From Deinococcales bacterium (GTDB lineage Bacteria > Deinococcota > Deinococci > Deinococcales > JAAFIG01), in contig JAYVRX010000108.1 of NCBI GenBank assembly GCA_043775825.1, positions 1,764 to 65,763 on the forward strand: a DNA stretch of 64,000 bases, written 5' to 3'. Below are positions 1-44,356 of the stretch, piece after piece. The position numbers were made by a program, and so were the translations under genes. The notes beneath the pieces were generated by a model. That model made no database searches. It was not told where the DNA came from and saw nothing but the letters and a program-made list of their open reading frames with translations. Position 1 is the first letter of the stretch. The number at the start of each line of letters is the position of its first letter.

Positions 1-837
1 CGCGGCGAACGGATTGCGGTGCTCGGACGGAACGGCGCAGGCAAATCGACGCTCGTCAAAACCATGCTCGGTATGATGGCATCCGATAACGCACGTGGGT
101 CACAACGTTTAGGCTCGAGGATCAAAGTGGGTTATTACGACCAGCAATTGCGCGGCGTTGACCCGAACAACACGCTGTTCAAAGAGGTCAAAGAATATTT
201 TGAATCCGATCAGCAAGTCCACGACATTCTGGGCGCGTACACTTTTCCTTATGACGCGCAGTATAAACTCGTCTCGAATTTAAGCGGTGGTGAACGTGCC
301 AGGCTCGCGCTTTTAAAGCTGTCCTTAGAGAAGAACAATTTGCTGGTGCTCGACGAACCGACCAATCACCTCGATATGGAAATGCTCGAGAGTCTCGAGA
401 GAGCACTGCTTAAATTTGAAGGCACGCTGATTATGGTCTCGCACGACAGGCGCTTTATCGAAAACCTGGCAAATCAAATCTGGTTGCTCGAGGAGGGCGA
501 ATTTTACAGCTACCCTGGTGGAGCGCAGTATTTTAAGGAAAAACACAAATCTAAAGTGATTGAAACAAACGAAGAAAAAGTGCTTGCACCCATCAAAGCA
601 CAACCCAAACGCGTGAACGCTTGGAAGTTAAACGCAGAAATCAAAGAACTCGAGAAACGAATTTTCCAACTCGAGACTGAACAAAGCAATATCACCACAG
701 AACTTGGTAATCCAACCGCGCAAACAAATTTTGCCGTGCTGGGCAAACGCGCCGATGAAATCGATGCGGAACTGCTCGAGATTATGGCGAAATGGGAAGA
801 AAACTCGAGTTTGTTGGAAGCGGCGGGGAGTAAGTAA
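1..837 (+). CDS. ABC-F family ATP-binding protein (Uup/YdiF-like), 5'-truncated by window edge
   Basis: Open frame from base 1 (RGERIAVLGRNGAGKST). Walker A, LSGGERAR signature, LLVLDEPTNHLD Walker B, SHDR switch and C-terminal coiled coil. Confidence 0.9.
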   Translation, partial: RGERIAVLGRNGAGKSTLVKTMLGMMASDNARGSQRLGSRIKVGYYDQQLRGVDPNNTLFKEVKEYFESDQQVHDILGAYTFPYDAQYKLVSNLSGGERARLALLKLSLEKNNLLVLDEPTNHLDMEMLESLERALLKFEGTLIMVSHDRRFIENLANQIWLLEEGEFYSYPGGAQYFKEKHKSKVIETNEEKVLAPIKAQPKRVNAWKLNAEIKELEKRIFQLETEQSNITTELGNPTAQTNFAVLGKRADEIDAELLEIMAKWEENSSLLEAAGSK

Positions 838-1022
838 GCGCAGAAAGCTTTACTGATTCAAAATGTCGCGTCATGAGCCAACCCTGATTGCTTTTAAGGT
901 AATTCTTAAGTGATTGACGGTTTGTTTTTAGATTTTAGGATACAGTTCTCAGATTTTATCGCGATTTTGATGTAAAAAACTCAATTTTCACTTTTTTCAC
1001 TCGAGAATTGTGATTATGCAAT

Positions 1023-2726
1023 TTAACGCAGTTGTGGTTGTGTGTTTGTTACACCCCATTCTTGGAGTGAACCTAGTATAAAAGGGTCAGCTTGACTATA
1101 GTCAACGACATAACCTAAATCTTGCATTCCTCCAACAGTTATTTTACTTATATTTTTAGAACCATAACCACCCATAAGGTCATAATATAATCTGCTATTA
1201 CTCCAAGAGCCTGGGCATGAACCATTTGGTAATGTGGGTGGATAATTAGGAGGTAAATTAAAAAAATCATATTGAAATTTAATATTTCCAAGACCACCAA
1301 GGGATTGATACTGACTTACAGCATTACTACCAATATATTCCGACCTTGGATTGCATAGATTTCCAGCTTGAATTTCACTAATTAAATTTTTTTTAATCCA
1401 ATTTACACCAAAACCCAGCACTCGAGCGATATCTCGGGTAATTCTAAGAGTTGCTTCACTCGCAGCAATATCGGCATCACTGGGGTTTGGATTTTGTAAC
1501 AAAGGAAGAATATCTGAAAAATCACTAATGTCATATTGCATAACTCCAATAGCAGGTAAAAAACTATCGACTCGAGTTAAACATGGCTCTATGCGAGACC
1601 TAAAACCACCTAGACCATCACTTTGCTCCTCTGGAATAAGATCAATAAAAATTTTTATATCATCAATGCCCGAAAATTTTGATTGATAATCGATTTTGCA
1701 ATCACCATTCATAGGGTCAAAAATACCGTGCATGTCTGGAATATCGCCTGTGATAATTTTTTGCCAACGATTTACTGCCGCATAAAAATATGGTCGGTAT
1801 TCAAGAGGAACATCTCGGTCAAAAACCAGGTTGATGGTATAATTGGTAGTTTCTTCGGGAAGTGAAAGACGATAATTATCAGCTTTGACATAACTAACGG
1901 TGTAACCTAAATCTGCCATTGATGCAATTGTTAAGCGACTTAACGGATTAAGCTGATAAGGATTTGTACTAGGTGTCAGGATTTCATCTTCAAACATTCC
2001 TTCTGCCCAATGTCCGCAAGTTCCACGTTCTTTTGATGCCGTTAGTGGAACGTTTCCAGTGCCACCTAAAAGTTCGTACTCGTGTTTGGCATTAAGTCCA
2101 GTAAATTCGGGATTTTCGCCACAACGTGTACCATCGGGGGTTGCAAGTTTTAATCCTAGATATAAATCCCAGATTGTTCCAAAACCAAAGGCATGAGCCA
2201 TTTCATGAAGTGTCACATCGGCTAGAAGGTTAAGCTGTTGCGAAGGCGTTGAAACATTTGGAAGATCGGCAGGATCGAATTCTATTTTTGAAATAATCGG
2301 TAAGTTTCTATTGTTCCCTTGGAGTCGCCATTTACAAAGATTAGCGACTGCGGCAGTTTTGCCTGGTCCATCTGACAAATTTTGTTCCTGCTGGTTAGGG
2401 TCAACAATTGTTGGCATTAAACCCACGTATAAAACAACATCATCTACATCTGTGACTGGGGGTAAAACATATGGTGGTGGGATTTGTTCACTGGTAAAGT
2501 GGCAATCTGTTGAATCAGTAATACCTGGAGCATCAACAATGTCGCCAATGATGATCTGTTCCCAAAAAAGCGCTTTTGATTGAACGAATGCTTTGGCTTG
2601 TGTTGGAAAACCAGGTAAAAAACGCAGTTCAATATTAAAACCTGAGGGTGGAGTTGGTGGTGTTGGTGGACAAGCTACCAGCAATAACATTAATACCAGT
2701 AAAAGCATTTGATTTACAAGTTTCAT
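1023..2726 (-). CDS. Lipoprotein with tandem leishmanolysin(M8)-like metalloprotease domains; second domain degenerate
   Basis: Lipobox LLVAC. Domain 1 has HEMAHAFGFG...CGHW...EILT...DLGY; domain 2 has RDIARVLGFG...DLMG...DLGY. Confidence 0.8.
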   Translation of the reverse strand: MKLVNQMLLLVLMLLLVACPPTPPTPPSGFNIELRFLPGFPTQAKAFVQSKALFWEQIIIGDIVDAPGITDSTDCHFTSEQIPPPYVLPPVTDVDDVVLYVGLMPTIVDPNQQEQNLSDGPGKTAAVANLCKWRLQGNNRNLPIISKIEFDPADLPNVSTPSQQLNLLADVTLHEMAHAFGFGTIWDLYLGLKLATPDGTRCGENPEFTGLNAKHEYELLGGTGNVPLTASKERGTCGHWAEGMFEDEILTPSTNPYQLNPLSRLTIASMADLGYTVSYVKADNYRLSLPEETTNYTINLVFDRDVPLEYRPYFYAAVNRWQKIITGDIPDMHGIFDPMNGDCKIDYQSKFSGIDDIKIFIDLIPEEQSDGLGGFRSRIEPCLTRVDSFLPAIGVMQYDISDFSDILPLLQNPNPSDADIAASEATLRITRDIARVLGFGVNWIKKNLISEIQAGNLCNPRSEYIGSNAVSQYQSLGGLGNIKFQYDFFNLPPNYPPTLPNGSCPGSWSNSRLYYDLMGGYGSKNISKITVGGMQDLGYVVDYSQADPFILGSLQEWGVTNTQPQLR

Positions 2727-2774
2727 ATTTTTCCCTTAATACGTTCAGTGGTATCTCGAGTGTCAAACCAACAA

Positions 2775-2796
2775 TGTAAGGTGTTTTAAGATTTTA
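2775..2796. promoter_or_regulatory. Putative regulator box TGTAAG-N6-TAAGATTTTA upstream of protease paralog 1
   Basis: Same motif occurs at 4651..4672, at near-identical distance (49 vs 50 bp) from the paralog start codon. Confidence 0.55.
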
Positions 2797-2909
2797 CAAG
2801 TACGAGACTGATAAAGTTGAACAAGTTATAACTAAATTTAAAACTCGAGAAATTTTATTTAAAACAAATTTAAGTACCTTAAAACTCATGTTTCGATAGA
2901 AAATGAGAC

Positions 2910-4601
2910 CTAGGTGCAACCAAATGGAAAGCAAGGATCAGTTGGTAACTGTGGTTGTAAATTAATTGGGTCAGCAAGAGAATAGTCAACTGTATAACCT
3001 AAGTCTTGCATTGCCCCGAATGTTACCTTACTTAGTGCACCTGAAAACCATCCAAACTGTGGATTTGTAGAATACGTTCCACCACCTCCCATAAGTTCAC
3101 CCAAATACCTCTGTCGCTCCCATAATTCAGGGCATTTTTCAGGTGGTGTGTTGGGTATGTAAAATATTTGCTGTCGAAAAATAATATTGCCAAGACCGCC
3201 AAGCAATTGAGCTTCACGTACCGCATTGCTTCCTGTATATTCCACGTTGGAACTGCATAAACCATTGCCAGTATAGCCACTGATAAAACCTTTTTTTATC
3301 CAGTTTGTTCCAAAACCAAGTGCTCGAGCGATACTTCTAGTAAAATTAAGAGTGGTGGCATTTGAAGGAGATTCTGGACTGTTAGAGGCATAAATGTGAG
3401 GAAGATACTCATTGCTGTATTGAATGACTGCAATTTCAGGTAGAAAACTTCCAGCCCGAGTTTTACATGGTTCGGCACGGTATTTTAGACCATTTGGTCC
3501 TGCGCTTTGGGCGGCAGGAATAATTCCAACATAAATAATAATGTCATCGACACCAGAAAACGGCGCTTCATCGGGAATATTGCAATCACCTGAGGCTGGT
3601 TTGAAAACACTATTCGAGTTTGGAATATCGGCGGTAATAATATTTTGCCAACGTGCTGCTGCTGCTTCAAAATGCGGTTTTAATTCATTTGGAAAGTCGT
3701 TAGAATAAAACCATTCAATGTCAAATCCTGTGTTAACGTCAGCAATAGGCAGTGAATAATTATCGGCAATACTGTAATCGACGGTGTAACCTAAATCTTG
3801 CATGGATGCGATTGTTAATCTGCTGACTGGATTATTTTGTCCTGGAATTGGTGGAGTTGCAGCTGGATTTGGAGCTGGGGTCATCATTTCTCGGTCAAAT
3901 AATTTTTCTGACCAGTGTCCACAAGTTCCATTTTCACTGCTTGCTTTAAGTGGAACGTTTCCTGTTCCTCCTAAAGTTGCATATTCGCGTTTGGCGTTGA
4001 ATCCCGTAAATTCGGGGTTGCTGCCACAAGGTGTGCTATCTGGGGTTTTAATGTAGAGACCTGGAAATTGATCCCAAACAGTTCCAAAGCCAAGCGCGTG
4101 ACCAACTTCGTGAATGGTAGCGTCTTTTAATAATTCGGGTTTATTTGTTGAATAATCGTCAAAGTAAGCTTTATTAAAAAATAATGTTGACATGAACGGT
4201 AAATTCTGATCTAAAGTTCCCAGACTTCGTACTAAACAAGGACCAGCATTGGCAATAATGCCATCTGTGGCATTTATGTCTTTGTTCATGCCTACATAAA
4301 GAATTAAATCATCTATATGTGGTCGGGTTTGAAGTGGATATGCTACTGCAACTTGTTCTGAGGTAAAGTTACAAATTGCTGGATCGGCTGGGTTGGTTGT
4401 GTTGTTAAAATCTGCGATGTCTGCAACAATAATTTTTTCCCAGTATTGTACAACTTGTTCCATAAATGGTTTAAATTGAGTTGGGAAATTATCGAGATAA
4501 ATAATTTCGATGTTGAATTGCGAATTAACAGGTGGTGTTTGTGGGCATGAAACAAGTGCTGCTAATAAAAGCAATAGAAACCCTCGAGCTACATTTTTCA
4601 C
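2910..4601 (-). CDS. Paralogous lipoprotein with tandem M8-like domains; second domain degenerate
   Basis: Lipobox LVSC. Domain 1 has HEVGHALGFG...CGHW...EMMT; domain 2 has RSIARALGFG...ELMG. Colinear with 1023..2726. Confidence 0.8.
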   Translation of the reverse strand: MKNVARGFLLLLLAALVSCPQTPPVNSQFNIEIIYLDNFPTQFKPFMEQVVQYWEKIIVADIADFNNTTNPADPAICNFTSEQVAVAYPLQTRPHIDDLILYVGMNKDINATDGIIANAGPCLVRSLGTLDQNLPFMSTLFFNKAYFDDYSTNKPELLKDATIHEVGHALGFGTVWDQFPGLYIKTPDSTPCGSNPEFTGFNAKREYATLGGTGNVPLKASSENGTCGHWSEKLFDREMMTPAPNPAATPPIPGQNNPVSRLTIASMQDLGYTVDYSIADNYSLPIADVNTGFDIEWFYSNDFPNELKPHFEAAAARWQNIITADIPNSNSVFKPASGDCNIPDEAPFSGVDDIIIYVGIIPAAQSAGPNGLKYRAEPCKTRAGSFLPEIAVIQYSNEYLPHIYASNSPESPSNATTLNFTRSIARALGFGTNWIKKGFISGYTGNGLCSSNVEYTGSNAVREAQLLGGLGNIIFRQQIFYIPNTPPEKCPELWERQRYLGELMGGGGTYSTNPQFGWFSGALSKVTFGAMQDLGYTVDYSLADPINLQPQLPTDPCFPFGCT

Positions 4602-4650
4602 ATATTCTCTTTAAAGATTTCTAATCTTATCTTTAGTCTTAAACTAAGAT

Positions 4651-4672
4651 TGTAAGTTAGCCTAAGATTTTA
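4651..4672. promoter_or_regulatory. Putative regulator box TGTAAG-N6-TAAGATTTTA upstream of protease paralog 2
   Basis: All 16 fixed positions identical to 2775..2796. Confidence 0.55.
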
Positions 4673-4783
4673 GTCGGAAAAAGTGTGGCAAAACCGAACA
4701 CGTTACAGCCAAATTTGAAGCTCGAGAATATGTTTAAGTGCTTGATTCACCACATTCTCGAGCAAAACTTTAACCCTAATTTA

Positions 4784-5119
4784 TTATTGGTCAAAACGAT
4801 TTTCAATTGGCAGGGTTTCACCATCATTCAAAGCTCGAGCCAGATTCAAAATCTTTGGAAAATCCAACCCGTAATACCAGGCTTCCTCGAGATTCCCAGA
4901 CTCGAGACTGTGGTAACAGGTGGCGTTTGGACCAAATTGGCACGCGCCCAAACAACCCGTTTCGGTCAATCGAACATGACCGCCAGAGTAATAAGCCAGT
5001 CGCTCACGCTCGAGGGTATTCCAGAGCGTTTGAAACAGACTTCTCGAGCCTTTGGCAGCGCATTTTTCGGAGGTGCAAACTAGCAGATGGGCGCGGGTTT
5101 TGAAAAAATTGGGTTTCAT
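4784..5119 (-). CDS. Thioredoxin-like (2Fe-2S) ferredoxin
   Basis: VCTSEKC...GCLGACQFGP Cys pattern; overlaps pabB stop by 4 nt. Confidence 0.8.
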   Translation of the reverse strand: MKPNFFKTRAHLLVCTSEKCAAKGSRSLFQTLWNTLERERLAYYSGGHVRLTETGCLGACQFGPNATCYHSLESGNLEEAWYYGLDFPKILNLARALNDGETLPIENRFDQ

Positions 5120-6516
5120 GAATTTTCCTTTTCAATAACGGTTCGTAATGCTAGCGTTTTGGCGTAAGTTTCCTCGAGTTCGGCTGTCGGGTTTGAATCT
5201 GCCACAATCGCGCCGCCAGCCTGAATTTGAATGCGATTCTTGGCAATAATGGCGCTGCGAATCACCACCGACAAATCAAAATCGCTGTTCAAATCAAAAT
5301 AACCGATTACACCCGAATAAACGCCGCGCCTGATTGGCTCGAGTTCTTCAATAATTTGCATGGCACGAACTTTGGGCGCTCCGGTCATCGAACCTGGCGG
5401 GAAGGTTGCACGGAGCACATCGACACTCGAGAATTCTGGTTTGAGTTCGGCGGTGATCGTGCTGACCATTTGCCATACCGCCCCATGAGGTTCGAGGTTG
5501 AACAATTCTGAAGCTCGAACAGACCCGAACTTGGCAACCCGCCCAAGATCATTGCGCATCAAATCGACAATCATTAGGTTCTCTGCACGGTCTTTTTCAC
5601 TTTGCTCGAGTTTAGATTTATTGGCTTGATCTTCTGCGGCTGTTTGCCCTCTAGTACGCGTGCCTTTGATTGGACGCGCCTCGAGAAAGCGTCTGGATTT
5701 TTTAAGGAATCGTTCTGGCGAGGCACTCACCACAGACAAGTCATCACCTGACAAAAACGCCGCGAAAGGCGCAGGATTTATCTGCATCAACGACTCGTAA
5801 AGCGCAAACGCATCGCCACAAAAATCTGCCTCGAGACGGTGGGTCAAATTGACTTGAAAAATATCGCCCGCTTGAATGTACTCGAGGCAGCGTTCAACAT
5901 CCTCGAGATACGTTTCTGGTTTTGTGATTGCTTCAAGTTTTGCTGTTTTAAACGAGGTTTTTGGTGACGTTCCGTTTTTGGCAAGCTCAAGAAGCTCAGT
6001 CCAAATTGGTTCACGGTTTGGGAAACCCTCGAGATTTGTTGTGCTCGAGTACCAAATTTGATTTTCGTGATCGAAAGCCAGAACAAAATCCATCAGATGA
6101 AGTCGTAAATCGGGTTGGTTGTCCTGCGAAGGGTGAACACAAGGTTCACCCCTACGAAAACCGTTGTAATTAATATTCTCGAGATACCGCACCAGGTCGT
6201 AACCCAAAAACCCGAGCCAACCACCAGCAAAATTCATGCCTTCGGGTCGTGATTGAGGCTCGAGTTTAAAACGGTTGAAAACTGTTTCGAGTGCTTCAAA
6301 CGGATTTTTCCAAGTCTCAAGAATTTTTCTATTCTCGAGCAACACGGTTTGGTTTTCGTGGGTTTCGAGCGTCAGTATTGGATCGCAGGCGATGTATGAC
6401 CAAGTGCTTAAACCTGGCATCAAACTGGCGCTCTCGAGCAGGCTAGCACCGACACGATGTTGGACACGGGCGAAGATTTCCCGAGGTTGACCATAAAGTT
6501 CGAGTTTAGAAATCAA
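5116..6516 (-). CDS. pabB: Aminodeoxychorismate synthase component I (chorismate-binding enzyme)
   Basis: GDIFQVNL, SASPERFL, PIKGT (PabB-type lysine), AENLMIVDLMRNDL, FPPGSMTGAPKVRAM. ORF track starts at 6540; TTG at 6516 is preferred because it lies 7 nt after a TAACGT -10 box and avoids overlapping the divergent gene. Confidence 0.85.
   Translation of the reverse strand: MISKLELYGQPREIFARVQHRVGASLLESASLMPGLSTWSYIACDPILTLETHENQTVLLENRKILETWKNPFEALETVFNRFKLEPQSRPEGMNFAGGWLGFLGYDLVRYLENINYNGFRRGEPCVHPSQDNQPDLRLHLMDFVLAFDHENQIWYSSTTNLEGFPNREPIWTELLELAKNGTSPKTSFKTAKLEAITKPETYLEDVERCLEYIQAGDIFQVNLTHRLEADFCGDAFALYESLMQINPAPFAAFLSGDDLSVVSASPERFLKKSRRFLEARPIKGTRTRGQTAAEDQANKSKLEQSEKDRAENLMIVDLMRNDLGRVAKFGSVRASELFNLEPHGAVWQMVSTITAELKPEFSSVDVLRATFPPGSMTGAPKVRAMQIIEELEPIRRGVYSGVIGYFDLNSDFDLSVVIRSAIIAKNRIQIQAGGAIVADSNPTAELEETYAKTLALRTVIEKENS
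6130..6156 (-). repeat. GTAG-type REP-like palindrome inside pabB coding sequence
   Basis: Minus strand CGTAG-GGGTGAAC-CTTGT-GTTCACCC-T: GTAG followed by an 8-bp perfect stem; translated in frame as RRGEPCVHP. Confidence 0.65.
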
Positions 6517-6538
6517 GTTAGACACGTTAAACTGCCCC
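6517..6538. promoter_or_regulatory. Overlapping divergent -10 boxes (bidirectional leaderless promoter)
   Basis: + strand TAAACT 6528..6533 lies 5 nt before ATG 6539; - strand TAACGT 6529..6524 lies 7 nt before TTG 6516. Confidence 0.5.
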
Positions 6539-7054
6539 ATGCTCGAGCGTGATTATTTTCCAAAAAAAGCTGGAAACCTGCTGAAATTGTTGTTGGCTCA
6601 AGACGGTTCAACCACCAAACTTTGCGAAGCAATCTCGGATTCTCGAGTTAGCTTAATGCTTCACTCGCAAGTCCGCGTTGAAACTGTACCAGAAGTGGTG
6701 ATGGACAAATTGGGTGGAACATCCTGGTTACAGCGCATCACAAGTTTGCATTCGGAATCTCGAGTGCTCATGGATAATCTGACGTTCACCCGACTTGACC
6801 GCGTTCCAAATTGGTTTGTAGCTGATCTCGAGCACGGTCTTGCCCCCGTGGGTTACTTGCTCGAGAAGCTTTTTGTGCGCCGTGAACGTATTAAATCAAC
6901 GTTTGATCTCGAGCAGGTTTTGTTTGAAACTGTGAGATTCCCAGATTCAGGCTCGAGCCGTGCCTACACGATCAACACCGAAGATGGTGCGGTCATGCTG
7001 GTCTTTGAAACCTACCGTGCAGGCTTTGCCAGGGTCTTCGAGGCTAATCGCTAA
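6539..7054 (+). CDS. Chorismate pyruvate-lyase-like (UbiC/DUF98) protein
   Basis: LLLAQDGSTTKL, R-x-x-x-L, PVGYLL, SRAYTI and VFETY match the chorismate lyase fold pattern; adjacent to pabB. Confidence 0.65.
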   Translation: MLERDYFPKKAGNLLKLLLAQDGSTTKLCEAISDSRVSLMLHSQVRVETVPEVVMDKLGGTSWLQRITSLHSESRVLMDNLTFTRLDRVPNWFVADLEHGLAPVGYLLEKLFVRRERIKSTFDLEQVLFETVRFPDSGSSRAYTINTEDGAVMLVFETYRAGFARVFEANR

Positions 7055-7064
7055 TTACTATTTG

Positions 7065-7940
7065 CTATTTGCTCAACTCAGGATGTAGCGCCACTGCCAA
7101 AGCCTTCAACGCCACGGGCAAGCGCGGTCCAGGACGAGATATCGCATCGTTGATTTCACCAGAGAAGTTGATCACGCGTTTGTTTTTAACGGCTTTGATC
7201 TTGTCCCAGGCTGGTCTGGTTAAAAGGTCTGCCAAGTCAGCACCCAAAATCACTTCAGGATCGCTCGAGATCACCAATTCTGGACTGATTTGCGGAAACG
7301 CCCCAAGTTTGGCTGGCACAATATTATTTCCACCCGCTTTGTCAATCATTGCGCCAATAAAACTTGAGCTTCCAGCAGCGTAAGGAGTTGGGTCAACTTC
7401 AAAGTACACGCTGACCCGAGGCAGTTTGGCGACGCTGGCTTGAATCGCGCTCAATTCGCTTCGTATGTTGGTAATGAGCTTAAGAGCATTTTTTTCGCGG
7501 TTGGTGATTTTGCCAATGACATTGATTTTCTCGAACACATCGTTATAGCTTTGTGCCACACCCGCATAAACCGTGATGCCCAGTTTCTCGAGGTTTTGCA
7601 CCAGTTTTGAGCCACTGCTTTCGTCGGTCAGCACCAAATCGGGTTTTAAAGCCGTGATTGCTTCAAGGTTTGGTACAAAACCATTGCCGGTTTTGGGTAG
7701 TTTGTCGGTCTCGAGTTTTGGGAAATTGCTGTACTCGTCAATGCCAATCAGGCTGTTCCCAGCACCGAGGGCAAACAAAGTTTCGGTGTGGCTCGGCATC
7801 ATCGAAACAATCCGTTTTGGTTGCACCATCAATTTGACGCTTCGTCCAAGATCGTCTTTCAAAACCAAAGGGTAAGAGGTCGCACCAACAAAACTCGAGA
7901 TTCCAAATGCCATTAATCCTGCCAGAATTATTTTTTTCAT
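7065..7940 (-). CDS. btuF: Cobalamin ABC transporter substrate-binding protein
   Basis: Signal peptide, PKRIVSMMPSHTETLFALG, KPDLV, SRPGPR; downstream of a cobalamin riboswitch operon. Confidence 0.8.
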   Translation of the reverse strand: MKKIILAGLMAFGISSFVGATSYPLVLKDDLGRSVKLMVQPKRIVSMMPSHTETLFALGAGNSLIGIDEYSNFPKLETDKLPKTGNGFVPNLEAITALKPDLVLTDESSGSKLVQNLEKLGITVYAGVAQSYNDVFEKINVIGKITNREKNALKLITNIRSELSAIQASVAKLPRVSVYFEVDPTPYAAGSSSFIGAMIDKAGGNNIVPAKLGAFPQISPELVISSDPEVILGADLADLLTRPAWDKIKAVKNKRVINFSGEINDAISRPGPRLPVALKALAVALHPELSK

Positions 7941-8044
7941 GCTTTCCTTTTTGAGACTCTTGGGTGTCTGAGTGATTTTTGAAAATGAACGAACGATATT
8001 TATTTCCTCATGTCAATCAAGTTTTTGGCGTTTAACCTCGAGCC

Positions 8045-8455
8045 ATGAAAACCCAATTTTTGATTGCTGCCGTGTTCATGACCAGTTTCATCGCCCAAGC
8101 GCAAATCGGTTTTGCGCCCACCGCCAGCCTGAACAAGCCTTTTATCCTGGCTTTGGGTACGCAAATATCCTTGAAGCCAAGCGGCGCAAAGCTGCTGTTT
8201 TTGCAAGTCACGAACGACTCGAGGTGTCCGATCAATGCCAAGTGCATCACGGCGGGCGATGCCCAAATGCAATTTTTGTACTGGTCGCCCAAAGCCACCA
8301 AATCCAAGATCATCAGCTTGCAAATGGTTGCGCCCAAAAACAAATTGCAACTCGACGGCACAATTTTGAAAGTCAGCGATCTTCAACCAGGTCGCACGGC
8401 TGGTAAAACCTTTGATATCAGCAAATATAAAGCCACATTGACTTTTATTAAGTGA
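8045..8455 (+). CDS. Hypothetical secreted protein (DSRCP-x4-C motif), antisense within btu cluster
   Basis: Signal peptide ending AQA; NDSRCPINAKCITAGDA motif; fills the btuD-btuF gap exactly. Confidence 0.65.
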   Translation: MKTQFLIAAVFMTSFIAQAQIGFAPTASLNKPFILALGTQISLKPSGAKLLFLQVTNDSRCPINAKCITAGDAQMQFLYWSPKATKSKIISLQMVAPKNKLQLDGTILKVSDLQPGRTAGKTFDISKYKATLTFIK

Positions 8456-8457
8456 GA

Positions 8458-9204
8458 TCATAAGCGCGGAATCACTACCACGCGACCATCACTGGATCGC
8501 AGCGTCTCGAGTTTGGTTTGGTAAACATCCTCGAGAATTTCGGGTTGCAAGACTTGCTCGGGCGTGCCCTCGGCAATCACAATGCCGCCCGAGATCAGCA
8601 CGCAACGGCTGGCGAGGGCAGCAAGGTTGAGGTCATGCACGACCATCACTACGGTTTGTAAAATGCTGCCCACGGCGTTGCGCAACAAGACCATCAATTC
8701 GGCTTGGTGTGCCAGATCAAGGTGGTTGGTAGGTTCGTCGAGCAGCAATACTTTGGGGTCTTGCGCCAGCGCCCTCGCCAGTGCCACCCGTTGACGTTCG
8801 CCGCCAGAAAGCGCCGCGATCTGGCGGTTCGAGAACGCCAGTGCGTCTGTGCTGCGCAGCGCACATTCAACCGCGCCCAGGTCGGCTTTGGTGATCCGTC
8901 CCCAAAACCCTTGAAACGGAATGCGCCCCAATTTGACCACCTCGAGTGCCGTAAACTCGAGCGGCAACGGTTCGGATTGCGCCAAATACGCGATGTGTCG
9001 GCTTTTTGGTTCTGGCGTTTGAATGCTGCCAAATTGAGGCTTTAAAAGTCCTGCAAGCAGTTTCAAGAGCGTGGTTTTGCCCGCACCATTGGGTCCAATC
9101 AGTGCCACAAATTCTCCAGCCTCAAACTCGAGGTTAAGCTTCTCGAGTACGGTGTTTTGACCGTAAGCAAAACCAAGATTTTTGACGGAAATTATTTTGG
9201 TCAC
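8458..9204 (-). CDS. btuD: Cobalamin/Fe-siderophore ABC transporter ATP-binding protein
   Basis: GPNGAGKTT, LSGGERQRV, LLLDEPTNHLD, VHDLN. Confidence 0.8.
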   Translation of the reverse strand: MTKIISVKNLGFAYGQNTVLEKLNLEFEAGEFVALIGPNGAGKTTLLKLLAGLLKPQFGSIQTPEPKSRHIAYLAQSEPLPLEFTALEVVKLGRIPFQGFWGRITKADLGAVECALRSTDALAFSNRQIAALSGGERQRVALARALAQDPKVLLLDEPTNHLDLAHQAELMVLLRNAVGSILQTVVMVVHDLNLAALASRCVLISGGIVIAEGTPEQVLQPEILEDVYQTKLETLRSSDGRVVVIPRL

Positions 9205-38374: not shown

Positions 38375-39754
38375 TTATTCCTGAGCTTCAATGCGGTTAA
38401 AGCCTTTTGGCGCTCCGACCTTATCCGCAATCACATTCTCGAGGTACTTCACCACGTTTTTTAATGGCACACGGTTCAGCACATCCTCGAGGAACGCCGT
38501 GACCAGCATTTTCTCGGCAATTGGCTTGGGAATGCCCCTCGAGCGCAAGTAAAAGAGTTCCTGCGCGTCCACAGGACCTGTGGTGCTGCCGTGAGAGCAC
38601 CGCACATCGTTGGCGTTGATCTCGAGTTGCGGCACGCTGTCGGTTCGCGCTTCATCGGACAGCAACAACGTGCGGTTTTTCTGGTACGCATCGGTTTTTT
38701 GGGCGTTCAATTCGACTTTAATCAAACCCGAAAACACAGCCCTTGCCTTGTCCGTCACAACACCCTTGAACAACAAATCTGAGTGTGCTCGAGGTTTGAG
38801 GTGATGCTGAAGCGTGTAATGGTCAAAATGCTGGTCTTTGTCGGCAAAGTACACCGCCAGCATTTCTGAATTCGAGTTTTCAGACAGTGCCGTCTGAACT
38901 TCCGAACGACTCAGCGTCGCGCCCATTGTGACGTACAAACTGTTCAGAGTCGCATCACGCTCGAGGTTCGATTTGATGCGTTGAATGTGCGTGAAACCGC
39001 GACCCCAGTTTTGAATCGCCACGTAACGCAAGTTTGCGCCCTTGCCCAAGAACAATTCGACCACGCCAAAGTTTGCGGCTTTCAAATCTGGGCTGTCCTG
39101 CTCGTCAATGTACGTGACTTTCGCGTTGTCCTCGAGCACCACCAACGTCCGAGAAGCCGTAAACGTTCCTTCCTGGTCGAGGTAACGGAAACCACCGAGC
39201 GGCAACTCGAGTTCGACATTTTTGGGCACGTACAAGAAAAAACCGTTGTCCCAAAGCGCGGCGTTCAGTGCCGTGAACTTGTCTTCGTCTAAATTAGGAA
39301 TCGCCTCGTAACGCTCGAGCGCCTGCGCGGTTGGGGCTGGGTACGCCGCGCCCACGACGCTGTACAAATACTTTTGCACCAATTCAGGATGTTTTTCGAT
39401 GGCTGTCTTTAAATCCGTGAAAATAACGCCTTTTGCCGCCAGTTCCGCAGGTACATCCTTAAAAATCACGCTTGAACCAGAAAGCACAATCCGTCCTGCT
39501 GCGTCCGTAGAGGAGAGACGATCACGAATTTTCGTGGGCAGTTCATCTAGGCTCGAGACTGCTGGTACGGGTTGGGCTGGACTGAAATTCTCGGGTTTGA
39601 ACCGTCGCAGGTTGGTGTACTTCCAAGATTCCACAGCCGTCGTTGGGATTTTACGGTCATGGTAAATCTCGAGGGCGGAAAGTCGGGCGGACTCGAGCCA
39701 TGCGGGTTCGTTGAGGCTCGAGATGGTGAAGGGGGATTGGGTTAATTGGGTCAT
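38375..39754 (-). CDS. sufD: Fe-S cluster assembly protein SufD
   Basis: ESWKYT, AVFSG.I, QKTDAYQ, PQLEI.ANDVRCSHG, FYLRSRGI. Confidence 0.9.
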   Translation of the reverse strand: MTQLTQSPFTISSLNEPAWLESARLSALEIYHDRKIPTTAVESWKYTNLRRFKPENFSPAQPVPAVSSLDELPTKIRDRLSSTDAAGRIVLSGSSVIFKDVPAELAAKGVIFTDLKTAIEKHPELVQKYLYSVVGAAYPAPTAQALERYEAIPNLDEDKFTALNAALWDNGFFLYVPKNVELELPLGGFRYLDQEGTFTASRTLVVLEDNAKVTYIDEQDSPDLKAANFGVVELFLGKGANLRYVAIQNWGRGFTHIQRIKSNLERDATLNSLYVTMGATLSRSEVQTALSENSNSEMLAVYFADKDQHFDHYTLQHHLKPRAHSDLLFKGVVTDKARAVFSGLIKVELNAQKTDAYQKNRTLLLSDEARTDSVPQLEINANDVRCSHGSTTGPVDAQELFYLRSRGIPKPIAEKMLVTAFLEDVLNRVPLKNVVKYLENVIADKVGAPKGFNRIEAQE

Positions 39755-39775: not shown

Positions 39776-40180
39776 TTATTTTTTTAATTTTTTTACAGCA
39801 AAATCGCCAAGTTTAACATCTTCGATTTCTCGATCAAAGGTTTCACCAGGCGTAGTTATTTCAGTTACTGGATTTTCACCGAGAAAATTGAACAAAGTTC
39901 CGCCTGAAGTCCTTTTAATCTCTCTTTTATCAGGTCTTTTGGAAATCTCAATTGATCTAATGGTTGTTATATTGTCTTGAATATGTACTGGAGAGGCTTG
40001 TCCTTTAAATATTTCAAGCTTTTCAAGCTCTTTATTAGTCTCAGGATCAATTATTATTTCACCTATTTCAATAATTGAAAATACATCTCCTTTTAAAACC
40101 CCATCTTTTGAACCCTGATTTATTACAAATTTAAATCCATCAATAACTTTAACAATTTTTGGACTATTTTCAGGTATCAT
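39776..40180 (-). CDS. Hypothetical protein, FlgT-C-terminal-like beta barrel, AT-rich
   Basis: VINQGSKDGVLKGDVF...IIDPETNKEL pattern; overlaps the upstream gene. Confidence 0.6.
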   Translation of the reverse strand: MIPENSPKIVKVIDGFKFVINQGSKDGVLKGDVFSIIEIGEIIIDPETNKELEKLEIFKGQASPVHIQDNITTIRSIEISKRPDKREIKRTSGGTLFNFLGENPVTEITTPGETFDREIEDVKLGDFAVKKLKK

Positions 40181-40676
40181 TTAAACCTACCTCCTCAAAC
40201 ATTTTAATCATTTCTAAGGTTATCGAATTTCTAAAAAATAACTTTTCTAAAGTTTTTGTATGATCTTTTTTTAAGTATTTTAATGGTTTTATCTGTAGAT
40301 AATCGCTTTGTGTCCACTGAACTGATCCAATAAAAACAGGAATTTCAAATTCTGAATCTTTTTCGTAGCAAACAGCTACAACGTTATTTGAAAATATTGG
40401 ATTTTTTCTAACAAGATACAGATTATATTTTTCTTCATACATAAAAGGGACTGCGTAGTCAAATATTTCACGAGTTTCATTTTTTTGTGTAAAAATATGA
40501 CTTAGGAGAACTGAGATAAGAATCAAAGAAAGAGTTGCCGAAAAAAGCAATATTTTCACTGGTATCTGAGAATTCACATCGACAAACATAGTCACAATAC
40601 TTGACATAAATCCTAAAACGCCAATAAGTATTGATAATCCGTTAATTGAGAAGGCAAATTTCGTAATTTTTGTCAT
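40170..40676 (-). CDS. Hypothetical membrane protein (2 N-terminal TM helices + beta domain), AT-rich
   Basis: 168-aa ORF in very AT-rich DNA; two hydrophobic helices at about residues 9-58. Confidence 0.65.
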   Translation of the reverse strand: MTKITKFAFSINGLSILIGVLGFMSSIVTMFVDVNSQIPVKILLFSATLSLILISVLLSHIFTQKNETREIFDYAVPFMYEEKYNLYLVRKNPIFSNNVVAVCYEKDSEFEIPVFIGSVQWTQSDYLQIKPLKYLKKDHTKTLEKLFFRNSITLEMIKMFEEVGLNDT

Positions 40677-40725
40677 GTTTACAATTCTTTATACTTAATG
40701 AATTTATATTTGAATTTCAACAGCT

Positions 40726-41018
40726 AAATTTGGTAATTACTCAACCCACCCCTCGTTATGAAACTATCGTGCTGCACGCGCTTGAAAATAGCCAAATTTT
40801 GCGAATTTATTCCCTCGAAATAAACCAAATTGAGTCTTCAATTTAATTTCGCCGTTCAGTACAGCATGGAACTAATTTTTATTGAAACCCTTGAGAATCA
40901 AGGAGTGATTTATTCTTAGATTTTCGATAAGGTGCGTTTAAAGTAAGAATCGTTTTGAGTACGCTATTTTTACTTAAATGCGAGTTGGAGTTATTCGGGT
41001 TGAGTAGTTACTAAATTT
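40726..41018. mobile_element. Putative MITE / IS remnant with imperfect terminal inverted repeats
   Basis: AAATTTGGTAATTACTCAACCC (40726..40747) vs GGGTTGAGTAGTTACTAAATTT (40997..41018): 20/22 inverted match; no ORF of 60 aa or more inside. Confidence 0.55.
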
Positions 41019-41086
41019 GAGTAGATTTACTAAAAAATGTAAAAATGTACTTTCTAATTTTTAGAGTCTGCAAAAAATCGAATTTT

Positions 41087-41299
41087 TTACTTAAACCAAG
41101 TTGTGCTGCCAAATTCTTTGGTTGTAGTTTTGCCATTTAAAATTTCAGTCAGTCCTTCTTGAATTGCTTTAGCTTCTTCAGCACTTAACTCTTCGTTTCC
41201 AGCAGGATGAACACTTAAAAGTAATTAGTACTCTTCGAGAGGCAATAAAATAAAGGTTCGCCCTATTTCATTGGTAATTTGTTGATGTGCTGCGATCAT
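41087..41299 (-). pseudogene. Pseudogenised paralog of antitoxin 41682..41939
   Basis: MIAAHQQITNEIGRTFILLPLEEY*LLLSVHPAGNEELSAEEA aligns with MIAG...IVLPLEEYQALLGIYPDDDEELTEEA; in-frame TAA at 41227..41225 replaces Gln; AGGAGG RBS retained. Confidence 0.75.
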
Positions 41300-41406
41300 T
41301 CTTACCTCCTAAAAATTTAATTCTCGAGATTACGCAAACTCGAGTTCTGCTGTTCTGCCTGGTGTTGGGTCTTGTGCAACTACAGCTTTCACCAATGCCT
41401 TGCGTC

Positions 41407-41685
41407 TTACTTTATCTTGTAAATATTTTTACGATGTCCAACTTTACGAACTTCCAACAAGTGTCCGTCTCGAACAAAAATGACCCGTAAATTCCCAAAA
41501 CTTAAACGGTAATGCCCCTTAAATTCACCCTGCATTTGTTTTATATCACCTCGAGCTTCCGCGCAAAGACTTAGAAGAGCATCCCAAACTTGTTCTTGTT
41601 CAAAGCGTTCGAGTTTACTAAATTCTTTTTCGGCGCGTTTCACAAATTGTAAGTAATAAGGTACATCTCGAGGGTTAATACTCAT
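41407..41685 (-). CDS. RelE/ParE family toxin
   Basis: KRAEKEFSKL, DIKQMQG, YRLSFGNLRVIF, VGHRKNIY. Confidence 0.85.
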   Translation of the reverse strand: MSINPRDVPYYLQFVKRAEKEFSKLERFEQEQVWDALLSLCAEARGDIKQMQGEFKGHYRLSFGNLRVIFVRDGHLLEVRKVGHRKNIYKIK

Positions 41686-41939
41686 GGTTTGATTGGGAAT
41701 TGTTGAGAGAGATTGAACTTAATTTGCATTTCTTCAGCGCTAACAACAGCATTACTGTTGCTTTCTTCGGTAGCAAGTCGTAAATCAAGTGCGGCTTCTT
41801 CGGTTAATTCTTCATCATCGTCTGGGTAAATGCCTAAAAGTGCTTGGTATTCCTCGAGCGGCAACACAATATGGGTTTTATTTCCTCGAGCATCACTGAG
41901 ATACTGGTGATTATCTTGTTCTTGAATACCTGCGATCAT
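41682..41939 (-). CDS. Acidic antitoxin (cognate of RelE-like toxin)
   Basis: YLSDARGNKTHIVLPLEEY motif, acidic tail, 4-nt overlap with the toxin. Confidence 0.7.
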   Translation of the reverse strand: MIAGIQEQDNHQYLSDARGNKTHIVLPLEEYQALLGIYPDDDEELTEEAALDLRLATEESNSNAVVSAEEMQIKFNLSQQFPIKP

Positions 41940-41981
41940 GTTTTGCTCCTTTCAATTATGCAAACTCGAGCTTTACTGCTC

Positions 41982-42161
41982 TTACAAATATTGAATGTTT
42001 TCCATAAAAGCAGCGCGTTCTTCTTCGGTACTGTCAGCTAATTCTCGAGCGAGTCGCTTCAGATTTTCTCGGCGGTGTTGCAAAAGAATTTGGTTGAGCC
42101 ATTCAAGTTCTGCTTCGCTCATTTTCTCAATTTTTTCGTGCAAATGTTCTTTGACACTCAT
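41982..42161 (-). CDS. 59-aa orphan paralog of antitoxin 42630..42896
   Basis: MSVKEHLHEKIEKMSEAELEWLNQILLQHRRENLKRLARELADSTEEERAAFMENIQYL; GAGGTG RBS; shares the N-terminal helix pattern and RENLK.LA...T.E...AF; below the ORF-track cutoff. Confidence 0.65.
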   Translation of the reverse strand: MSVKEHLHEKIEKMSEAELEWLNQILLQHRRENLKRLARELADSTEEERAAFMENIQYL

Positions 42162-42219
42162 GCTTCACCTCGCTTCGTTTAATTCAGCCCATTCAAGAAG
42201 TTTTCCAACATGCCTCGAG

Positions 42220-42633
42220 TTATCCTTGATTTCTTTCAATCCAATTCTCGAGTCGAATGTTCGGAACTCGAGCGAAATGCTTGGTGTTATCTGTCACCAG
42301 AATCGCACTTTGATTTATAGCTGTAGCGGCAATAAGTGTATCTGTATCCTCTAGTAATGTGCCTTGCTTTTTTAAGTGCTGGTAAATTAATACTGCTTGT
42401 TGTATTACGTTTCGATCTAATGGGTAAACAATAATATCTTCAAGCCAATCATGAAATCTCGAGTACTTCTTTTGATAATAGGGGAGTTCTAAACCGCGCT
42501 CAATCTCAAAATAAGTCATATTGCTAATGGTAAGAATGTGTCCGTCACTGTATTTTTGATCGAAAGTATCGGTAATGTTTTGATTTTCATTGACTATTTC
42601 GGAAATAACATTGGTGTCTAAAACGTATTTCAT
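42220..42633 (-). CDS. vapC: VapC family PIN-domain toxin
   Basis: YVLDTNVIS, E, DTLIAATA, LVTDNTKHFARV..L.LENW. Confidence 0.88.
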   Translation of the reverse strand: MKYVLDTNVISEIVNENQNITDTFDQKYSDGHILTISNMTYFEIERGLELPYYQKKYSRFHDWLEDIIVYPLDRNVIQQAVLIYQHLKKQGTLLEDTDTLIAATAINQSAILVTDNTKHFARVPNIRLENWIERNQG

Positions 42634-42896
42634 GGTTGAAATTCAATTGGTTTTCGGCGTAATGGACGACGTTTTACAGCTTCGTTAAACGCAGTTAAAT
42701 CTTCACCTGTTGGTTCGGCTAAGGCTTTCAAGTTTTCTCGAAACCGTTCTATTTCTTTTGGTGTGCGTTGTACTCGAACATCGGGTAAGTCTGGGTATTT
42801 AAATGCAGGGTCAGTGTCAATCACTTTTTTCAGTCGCTCGAGACTTGTTTTGGTCATGTGGTCTATTCGTTCAATGATTTCTTCTCGCATGGTCAT
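42630..42896 (-). CDS. Putative VapB-type antitoxin
   Basis: Start MTMREE at 42896 (GAGGAG RBS); 4-nt overlap with vapC. Confidence 0.65.
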   Translation of the reverse strand: MTMREEIIERIDHMTKTSLERLKKVIDTDPAFKYPDLPDVRVQRTPKEIERFRENLKALAEPTGEDLTAFNEAVKRRPLRRKPIEFQP

Positions 42897-42928
42897 GATT
42901 TCACTCCTCTCGAGCATTCTAAACGGCT

Positions 42929-44356
42929 TTAACCCACTGATCCTTCCATCTCGAGTTCAATCAAACGATTCAACTCCACCGCGTATTCGAGCGGTAATTC
43001 TTTGGCAATCGGTTCAATAAATCCGCGCACGATTAAACCTGTTGCGGCTTCTTCGCTTAACCCTCGAGACATCAGGTAGAACACTTGTTCGTCGTTAATT
43101 TTGCTAACTGTGGCTTCGTGTCCGACGCTGGCGGTTTTTTCTTCAATTTCAATGTACGGGTAGGTGTCAGTGCGGCTGTCGTCATTCAACAAGAGTGCAT
43201 CACATTCGACGTTGCTTTTGGCATTCGTTGCGCCATCATAAATTTTCACCAAACCACGGTAACTCGAGCGTCCAGAGTTTTTCGAGATTGATTTACTAAC
43301 AATGCTCGAGCTTGTGTTTGGTGCGAAATGCACGACTTTACCGCCTGCATCTTGGTGTTGTCCTGTGTTCGCCATTGCAATACTTAAAATTTCACCTCGA
43401 GCGTGTTCCTCGAGTAAGTATGTGGCTGGGTATTTCATGGTGACTTTGCTGCCCAGGTTGCCGTCCACCCATTCCATGTGCGCCCCTTGGTAGACGGCGG
43501 CGCGTTGGGTCACAAGGTTGTAAACGTTGTGTGACCAGTTTTGAATGGTGCTGTACCGCATCCGAGCGTCTTTTTTGACCACAATTTCGATCACGCCGCT
43601 GTGGAAGCTGTCGCTCGAGTAACTAGGTGCGGTGCAACCTTCAATGTAATGCGCGAATGCGCCCTCTTCAATCACGATCAGGGTACGTTCAAACTGCCCT
43701 GAGTTTTCGGCGTTGATGCGGAAGTAGGTTTGCAGTGGAATGTCCACTTTGACGCCTTTTGGCACGTAAACAAAGCTACCGCCTGACCAAACGGCGCTGT
43801 TCAAAGCTGCAAATTTGTTGTCCTCGGGTGGAATCACGGTTGCAAAATACTCGCGGAAGATGTCTGGATGCTCGCGCATTCCATCTTCAATCGACAAGAA
43901 GATTACTCCAAGCTTTTCCCATTCTTCCTTGAGGTTGTGATAGACCATTTCCGATTCGTACTGAGCGCCCACACCCGCCAGCATTCCGCGTTCGGCTTCG
44001 GGAATACCGAGTTTATCAAAGGTGCGTTTGATTTCGTCTGGCACATCGTCCCAGGTTCTAGCGTTTAGTTCGTCGGTTGGTTTGATGTAGTAGTAAATAT
44101 TCTCGAGGTCAAGTGCGCTTAAATCTGCGCCCCAAGTTGGAATTGGTTTGGAATTGTAAATATCAAGTGCCTTAAGCCTAAACTCGAGCATCCAGGCGGG
44201 TTCGTTTTTGGCGCTCGAGATCATTTTGACCACATCGGCGGATAAGCCTTTTGGGGCTTTGATCGTGTACTTTTCGGGCTGCGACCAGCCGTATTCGTAA
44301 CCGTCGTTGATTTTGGCGACTTCTGGGTTGGGTAGGTTGTCGGTGTATTGTGTCAT
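42929..44356 (-). CDS. sufB: Fe-S cluster assembly protein SufB
   Basis: [50 protein letters not shown]. Confidence 0.95.

Follow-up and report, generated by a model that had tools for sequence, protein, structure and literature searches.

Tandem lipoprotein genes of a Deinococcales bacterium that probably encode an M8-type zinc protease domain fused to a dead copy of itself

The 64,000-nucleotide stretch analyzed here (positions 1,764 to 65,763 of contig JAYVRX010000108.1, Deinococcales assembly GCA_043775825.1; hereafter the window) carries near its start two neighbouring genes, A and B, whose products share 47% identity over their full length (E 6e-158). Each product appears to consist of two homologous halves: an N-terminal domain of the leishmanolysin type (domain 1) with an intact zinc site, and a C-terminal domain (domain 2) from which that site has been lost. 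We consider it probable that A and B are old paralogs encoding lipid-anchored zinc endopeptidases with a dead partner domain, of a kind restricted to the Deinococcales, and that the gene pair arrived as an insert.

Domain architecture and the zinc site

Comparison of the two halves within each protein gave 25% identity for A (E 1e-22) and 32% for B (E 4e-35). At the DNA level a repeat segment is present in four copies across the two genes, with a spacing of 792, 1092 and 792 nucleotides, and the motifs [LF]GFG, G.NA, LGG.GN and M.DLGY each occur twice in A and twice in B. An internal duplication in each paralog had been proposed in an earlier reading of the window made from its letters alone (the original prediction), and these comparisons bear it out.

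Domain 1 carries the zinc-binding and catalytic HExxHxxG motif as HEMAHAFG in A (from residue 174) and as HEVGHALG in B (from residue 164), HExxH being invariant in all 13 full-length members of the family described below. The third histidine stands in a CGHW motif beginning at residue 237 in A and 227 in B. A domain profile aligned to leishmanolysin (PDB accession number 1LML; E 5e-15) brings HExxH into register with that of the known enzyme, together with the third His (His239 in A, His229 in B), the Met-turn E-L-M-T and the D-L-G-[YF] helix after it. HExxH and the CGHW ligand of domain 1 had thus been correctly recognized at the outset. The MQDLGY motif, on the other hand, had been taken for the Met-turn region, and this is a mislabel because the alignment puts the Met-turn (E-[IL]-M-T) 11 residues beyond the third His, MQDLGY being the C-terminal helix that follows it. 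At the Met-turn position itself domain 1 has Met in B and Leu in A (Met in eight, Leu in four and Val in one of the 13 proteins), while the Met-turn Met of domain 2 is kept in all 13.

All four catalytic positions are replaced in domain 2 of A and of B. RDIAR (from residue 431 of A) and RSIAR (from residue 422 of B) stand in place of HExxH, and CPGSW (504) and CPELW (490) in place of the third-ligand motif, as had been described. These replacements support the view that domain 2 is a catalytically dead copy of domain 1. The other motifs, LGG.GN among them, were said to be intact in domain 2; this holds for A and B, and LGG.GN is kept in only part of the family.

Against PF01457 (Peptidase_M8; gathering cut-off 21 bits) both whole proteins and both copies of domain 1 score at or above the cut-off (Table 1), and membership comes through domain 1 only. 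Domain 2 alone matched no Pfam family at E<=10. The search of each half against Peptidase_M8, which had been suggested as a check, therefore succeeded for domain 1 and failed for domain 2, whose homology is shown instead via domain 1, profiles and fold. A second family model, NF038122 of NCBIfam (metallo_LGF family metalloprotease), gave 15.9 bits for A and 26.1 bits for B against a curated cut-off of 80 bits, which places neither protein in that family.

Predicted folds

The full-length model of A was confident (predicted local distance difference test, pLDDT, 88.3; predicted template modelling score, pTM, 0.85), and in it the order of strands and helices in residues 298-536 mirrors that in residues 32-272. 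Domain 1 of this model was aligned to 1lml by VIA-align with Z 20.6, a root mean square deviation (rmsd) of 3.1 and 228 aligned residues, compared with Z of about 10 for the catalytic domains of matrix metalloproteinases. Domain 2 of A, modelled alone (pLDDT 88.2, pTM 0.87), found 1lml first in Foldseek (E 7.2e-9, query TM-score, TMq, 0.64) and 1lml_A first among 48,161 chains (Z 19.8, rmsd 3.4, 239 aligned); the metzincins that came after it matched at Z 7.2 and below. Sequence identity to leishmanolysin is only about 17-18%. As modelled, then, both domains have the fold of the N-terminal plus central domains of leishmanolysin, and the zincin fold on which the original prediction for domain 2 depended is recovered with 1lml as the best match.

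Distribution of the two-domain family

The whole-protein search scored 8000 candidates and returned 249 relatives. The proteins covering both domains besides A are P0003-P0011, P0013, P0014 and P0012, the last of which is B, so that the two-domain family comprises 13 full-length proteins. Two further members, P0015 and P0143, are fragments cut at contig ends. All belong to this Deinococcales genus or come from metagenomes. Domain 2 was also searched, without filters, against 1.84 billion representatives. Of its 2041 hits, the three at E<=1e-30 all lie in the two-domain family, being two-domain proteins or a fragment, with no free-standing domain 2 among them.

A domain hidden Markov model run over 266 proteins delimited 281 near-full domains, and HExxH is present in 264 of these. 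Rows of the RxxxR type number 15 (14 distinct proteins), every one a domain 2 of the two-domain family: RDxxR occurs eight times, RSxxR twice (the same gene both times), and RExxR, KSxxR, HNxxR, RDxxQ and RDxxF once each. None of the 15 has His in the third-ligand column. Elsewhere among the 281 domains, two unrelated proteins have lost the Glu alone (HNxxH and HAxxH). Loss of the active site thus appears to be confined to the two-domain family.

Among 363 genomes of the order, many of them incomplete, matches resembling domain 2 at E<=1e-45 were present in two, namely the window's own genome (79% complete) and G001, a genome of the same genus. A scan of metagenome contigs for more two-domain DNA gave 47 loci, among which there was no close two-domain relative.

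The window's genome contains three more M8-like genes, each with a single domain and HExxH (G000:C131:40291-42271, loci L003 and L005, and G000:C158:19862-20572, locus L004). Two of these, coding for 295 and 388 amino acids, are adjacent, and the pair is kept in several genomes of the genus.

Phylogeny of the duplication

Two trees of single domains were built. Tree 1 holds 100 rows from a quick search, with every fifth of the "other" domains, and carries Shimodaira-Hasegawa-like approximate likelihood ratio (SH-aLRT) support; tree 2 holds 49 rows from a careful search, without P0004, P0006 and P0015 and with 12 hand-picked outgroups. The domain-2 clade received support of 100/100 and sits on a long stem (0.61 in tree 1, 0.79 in tree 2). 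Domains 1 and 2 fall together on one side of a branch with support of 89 in tree 1 and 90/81 in tree 2, the nearest outgroups being single-domain genes of the same genus. Within both domain clades the same three subfamilies recur (A-like, B-like and the type of L008 and L009), with A and B in different ones, which points to one internal duplication, with the site then lost, ahead of the diversification of the family.

The representative library also includes P0131, a protein of 873 amino acids in which two tandem M8-like domains precede a hydrophobic segment and a long tail rich in Asn. Like A and B it has duplicated the same domain internally, but independently, its two copies being sisters (support 99). 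Unlike them it keeps HExxH in both copies, has a transmembrane segment and is not a lipoprotein.

Selection and residue conservation in domain 2

Nonsynonymous to synonymous substitution ratios (dN/dS) were calculated for the four two-domain genes with DNA (A, B, L008 and L009), of which L008 and L009 form the one unsaturated pair. For this pair dN/dS was 0.12 (NG86) and 0.16 (YN00) in domain 1, and 0.20 (NG86) and 0.195 (YN00) in domain 2; no further close two-domain DNA was found, and the estimate is therefore that of L008 vs L009 only. Divergence among the full-length proteins reaches about 45-50% identity, and the reading frame of domain 2 is intact in 13/13. Both observations support purifying selection on domain 2 over decay, as the original prediction had supposed. 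Domain 2 would in that case combine the loss of catalytic and metal-binding residues with retention under purifying selection, as is expected of a pseudopeptidase domain.

Invariance is complete in 44 columns of domain 2, among them those of the edge strand, LGFG and Met518. Its best-kept parts are the C-terminal helix, R-V-L-G-F-G-x-N-W, a G-I-D-D-I strand and the strand S-F-L-P-A-I-G-V-M, which by its position we take to be the metzincin cleft-edge strand; the region of the lost third ligand is variable. At the two former His positions the 13 proteins have Arg in 11, Lys in one and His in one (site 1), and Arg in 11, Gln in one and Phe in one (site 2). The column entropy of these sites, 0.77 bit, lies at the 31st percentile of domain-2 columns. 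The Arg pair is thus clearly non-random, as judged from the alignment, yet not among the most constrained residues. Both A and B have Arg at each site, as claimed, and homologs do not show random residues there; across the wider family the pair is frequent, not invariant.

Codon usage adds a complication. The Arg codons of site 1 vary (CGA, AGA, CGC), while site 2 is CGA in all four genes with DNA, where it is written GCT-CGA-G and so forms a CTCGAG site in 4/4. Each of the eight CTCGAG sites in the four genes coincides with [A/T]-R-x codons, and in L009 the one at the second Arg is the sole site of a 1.7-kb gene. The second Arg may therefore be retained in part for a reason at the DNA level, and from these four gene sequences protein-level and DNA-level conservation are not separable.

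Proposed function of domain 2

We propose that A and B belong to a small family of extracytoplasmic, lipid-anchored M8 (metzincin) proteases of the leishmanolysin type. An ancestral single-domain gene would have been duplicated internally, once. The N-terminal copy would have kept HExxHxxG, the third His about 61 residues on and the Met-turn position. The C-terminal copy would have lost the three zinc ligands and the general base (His to Arg, Glu to Asp or Ser, third His to a variable residue), and kept its fold, both presumed disulfide pairs, the cleft-edge strand (SFLPAIGVMQYD), the LGFG.NW turn and the Met-turn Met. Proteolysis at the external side of the membrane would be the work of domain 1. 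Domain 2 may be a zinc-free partner packed on domain 1, whose retained cleft positions or holds the substrate or a cell-surface target, and the arginines may mainly fill and neutralize the vacated metal site. The gene pair itself came as an insert of about 3.9 kb into a variable intergenic spot.

Several points weigh against this proposal. The role given to domain 2 is drawn only from conservation and analogy, and the domain-2 model was guided by a 58-row alignment (A4) of mostly active homologs and so leans on the family. With Leu at its Met-turn, domain 1 of A may have reduced stability or activity. The branch uniting domains 1 and 2 is very short (0.010), which makes their sisterhood likely, not firm. 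For the five other gene pairs dS was above 1 or undefined and the ratios unreliable. Finally, domain 2 of the A subfamily has evolved about 4-5 times faster than domain 1 (path length 0.78 vs 0.17 between P0001 and P0003), which fits relaxed or shifting constraint.

It is possible, if somewhat unlikely, that domain 2 binds no ligand and acts purely as a structural scaffold or spacer that stabilizes or orients domain 1 or lifts it off the membrane. Its fold, cysteines and hydrophobic core motifs are kept while the loops of the lower subdomain (about residues 470-520) vary, and the pTM of 0.85 suggests a fixed two-domain body. The stretches that are best kept, however, are those forming the cleft (S-F-L-P-A-I-G-V-M, R-V-L-G-F-G-V-N-W and, in 13/13, the Met-turn Met), which a plain spacer would not need.

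As the original prediction suggested, the two Arg residues on the former zinc helix could instead bind an anionic ligand. They would form a cationic pocket that receives, for example, an envelope polymer, an acidic peptide or a group such as phosphate or sulfate, domain 2 then being a targeting or exosite module. We regard this as quite unlikely. Arg at both sites in 11/13 proteins agrees with such a pocket, as do the synonymous codon variation at site 1, the net charge of domain 2 (-2 to -12 vs -13 to -19 in domain 1) and a KK in domain 2 just past the helix, where domain 1 has D-x-[FY]. Yet the sites are only averagely conserved and tolerate Lys, His, Gln and Phe; the first Arg has Asp or Glu beside it in 10/13, and acidic residues often occur close to where the third ligand was lost, so that the arginines could be neutralized internally; a single codon step turns His into Arg; and the second Arg codon is embedded in the conserved CTCGAG. 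A broader version, which we would call simply unlikely, joins the parts into a zinc-free pseudo-leishmanolysin whose Arg-Asp-Arg pocket serves as a recognition module for an acidic peptide or envelope polymer and steers the active domain. The genes would then be a small mobile two-gene cassette circulating among CTCGAG-rich Deinococcales, with one Arg also locked by the palindrome. If true, domain 2 would be the first pseudoprotease of family M8 to have a defined role.

That domain 2 acts within the molecule as a latency or inhibitor module, which blocks the cleft of domain 1 until its release and replaces a missing propeptide, seems very doubtful to us. Domain 1 does begin right after the lipobox and linker, without a propeptide, but the single-domain homologs of the same genus (295-amino acid genes) also start near the N-terminus and have no domain 2, and no conserved cleavage linker is evident. 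It is hardly credible that domain 2 is a decaying relic whose conserved residues reflect recent common descent only: it has no Pfam hit and a higher mean column entropy than domain 1 (1.27 vs 1.01 bits), but decay was rejected on the frames intact in 13 proteins at about 45-50% identity, the dN/dS of 0.20, the 44 invariant columns and the confident modelled fold.

Comparison with known proteases

The reading we prefer, a leishmanolysin-type protease with a zinc-free partner domain, has parallels within and outside family M8. Besides the fold match of both predicted domains, domain 1 shares with leishmanolysin (GP63; MEROPS M8, PF01457, 1LML) the HExxHxxG motif, the distant third His (61 residues on in A), the Met-turn position and the D-L-G-[FY] helix. 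GP63 is attached to the membrane by a glycosylphosphatidylinositol (GPI) anchor. A and B, in contrast, are bacterial proteins with a predicted lipobox anchor, and their second, dead M8-like domain stands where the C-terminal domain of GP63 would be.

Closer relatives are the single-domain bacterial proteins annotated as leishmanolysin-related zinc metalloendopeptidases, which like A and B have a domain of about 250 residues with HExxH, at 30-45% identity. They include the three other genes of the window's genome, and the copies from the same genus are the nearest outgroup. Unlike A and B they are built on one domain, to which Big or other accessory domains are often added, and none has the RxxxR dead copy.

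Outside the family, the passages on M16 peptidases (pitrilysin and insulysin, mitochondrial processing peptidase or MPP) in a 2024 review of pseudopeptidases (PMC11266112) describe a pairing like that in A and B, in which an active unit works alongside an inactive homolog that is either fused to it or a separate partner. According to the same passages (PMC11266112), the HxxEH of beta-MPP is replaced by HxxDR in alpha-MPP; the Glu-to-Asp and His-to-Arg substitutions of domain 2 are found there as well. M16 differs from A and B in that its fold and clan (an inverzincin clam-shell) are unrelated, and a shared substrate chamber is established in M16 and conjecture in A and B. Carboxypeptidase D (M14), as outlined in the same review, has three tandem domains of which the third is inactive (PMC11266112), and thus resembles A and B as a tandem duplication in a membrane-tethered extracytoplasmic protein whose last copy is dead yet kept. 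It is, unlike them, an animal exopeptidase of another fold, with two of its three copies active. Anthrax lethal factor, from another zincin family, may offer a further parallel in its domains I and IV, where a duplicated zincin-like domain without HExxH serves binding.

The design of an enzyme with a dead twin is well known, and what appears to be new here is its occurrence in the leishmanolysin family M8. The word leishmanolysin does not occur in the main text of the 2024 review (PMC11266112). Our literature searches brought up no paper on a bacterial M8 pseudo-domain in the titles and abstract openings returned, no studied bacterial leishmanolysin-like protein, and no paper combining "leishmanolysin" with "Deinococcus". 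Current understanding is not overturned by A and B, the principle of an active and a dead paralogous domain being already known; they would make M8 one more metallopeptidase family known to have pseudo-domains. Leishmanolysin-like proteases are widespread among bacteria, with 2041 representative clusters matching domain 2. A and B may be seen as a natural experiment, in which the same fold stands with and without a zinc site side by side and the dead copy has long been kept, and the family could show what a metzincin cleft does once cutting is lost.

The gene pair

The features of A and B and of the insert that holds them are collected in Table 1. According to the list of open reading frames (ORFs), the two genes lie head-to-tail on the minus strand with 183 bp between them, A starting with ATG and B with GTG. 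A lipobox, judged by eye against the consensus [LVI][ASTVI][GAS]C, occupies residues 16-19 of each protein behind a hydrophobic stretch and is followed in both by a Pro-rich linker; its Cys19 is nearly invariant in the family alignment. The ORFs and this Cys agree with the earlier description of the pair as tandem lipoprotein genes. The 45-nucleotide stretches upstream of A and B are 73% alike, and the ancestral tandem duplication therefore took in the 5' region.

Table 1. Position, strand and basis of the features assigned to genes A and B and to the surrounding insert (window coordinates)
Feature	Coordinates	Strand	Basis
Gene A, 567-amino acid lipoprotein with an active-type and a probable dead M8-like domain	1023..2726	-	ORF list; PF01457 28.5 bits
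Gene B, 563-amino acid paralog of A, GTG start, architecture as in A	2910..4601	-	ORF list; PF01457 24.7 bits
A residues 1-19, signal peptide ending in lipobox L-V-A-C, then Pro-rich linker	2670..2726	-	Read by eye
B residues 1-19, signal peptide ending in lipobox L-V-S-C	4545..4601	-	Read by eye and family alignment
A domain 1, residues 28-292, catalytic leishmanolysin-like	1851..2645	-	Pfam M8 28.1 bits; 1lml Z 20.6
A HEMAH, residues 174-178, two predicted zinc ligands and catalytic Glu	2193..2207	-	Motif invariant in 13/13 proteins
A His239, predicted third zinc ligand in CGHW, 61 residues past His178	2010..2012	-	Invariant in 13/13
A domain 2, residues 293-567, putative pseudo-protease domain without zinc site	1023..1850	-	Homology to domain 1; model; 1lml_A
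A RDIAR, residues 431-435, in place of HExxH	1422..1436	-	Motif search; second Arg codon CGA within CTCGAG 1421-1426
B domain 1, residues 27-292	3726..4523	-	HEVGH 4098-4112; His229 3915-3917; Pfam M8 22.6 bits
B domain 2, residues 293-563	2910..3725	-	RSIAR 3324-3338; second Arg codon within CTCGAG 3323-3328
Low-GC, CTCGAG-poor insert, about 3.9 kb	838..4783		Composition; junctions in same-genus genomes

The C-terminus of A (window 1023-1100) is without the Cys-rich P-x-C-D-P...C tail carried by B and most relatives, and a search downstream of A for a frameshifted remnant of this tail found none. Scanning positions 800-4850 for promoters and terminators yielded uninformative counts: 20 promoter-like sites, where shuffles had 12.2 +/- 3.9, and 2 terminator-like ones, where they had 3.7. 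The locus is contained in two DNA sequencing runs, both of one study, and no RNA run containing it is listed.

Insertion into a CTCGAG-rich genome

The palindrome CTCGAG occurs 441 times in the window (for example at 114-119 and 385-390), compared with 9.6 expected from shuffles. In the 38 other ORFs of the window with 200 amino acids or more, 332 of 527 synonymously possible sites (63%) are realised. CTCGAG is a genome-wide iterated palindrome. Positions 1023-4601 have only six copies vs 25.8 expected at the rate of the rest of the window (Poisson P 3e-6) and a guanine plus cytosine (GC) content of 0.389 vs about 0.49; the original prediction, which called the locus AT-rich and CTCGAG-poor with about six sites, was accurate. 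Synonymously possible sites are rarer in A and B (11.5 per 1000 amino acids vs 35 elsewhere), and those possible are less often realised (2/7 in A and 2/6 in B, vs 332/527; Fisher P 0.038).

The insert is flanked by an ABC-F gene, which ends at 837, and by a 2Fe-2S thioredoxin-like ORF with pabB (4784-6540). These flanks are adjacent, with no protease gene between them, in all four of the same-genus genomes compared (G001-G004; G005 was left out as it has no ortholog-level pabB hit). The spacer measures about 85 bp in G003, 170 bp in G002, 720 bp in G001, 940 bp in G004 and 3946 bp in the window, and the ABC-F/pabB spacer is thus a variable spot in the genus. The two-domain gene of G001 lies at another place with different neighbours, and there also differs from its surroundings (GC 0.446 and 0.58 CTCGAG per kb, vs 0.53 and 7-10 per kb in its flanks). 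Neither convincing direct repeats at the ends of the island nor, within positions 1-9000, an integrase or transposase ORF of 80 amino acids or more was found. On its composition and on the sites without protease in 4/4 same-genus genomes, the locus looks acquired, in line with the acquisition first suggested from the GC and CTCGAG deficit. Native DNA being marked by hyper-abundant CTCGAG, the palindrome offers an internal clock or a tag by which foreign DNA stands out, and the locus is a clean example of accessory DNA in a genome marked in this way.

The homologous junction in G001 (L149, 2080-2678) and in G004 (L148) is occupied by a RelE-like toxin gene and a helix-turn-helix (HTH) gene. In G004, both ends of the junction are also duplicated as short copies (57 and 106 nucleotides).

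Other low-GC DNA in the window

A second low-GC stretch, at 39776-42917 (GC 0.335 in 40001-42000), lies between genes of the SufBD family at 38375-39754 and 42929-44356. Its first two ORFs (39776-40180 and 40170-40676) match no Pfam family; a weak ParE-like ORF (41407-41685) and a PIN-domain ORF (42220-42633) with a small ORF upstream of it come next.

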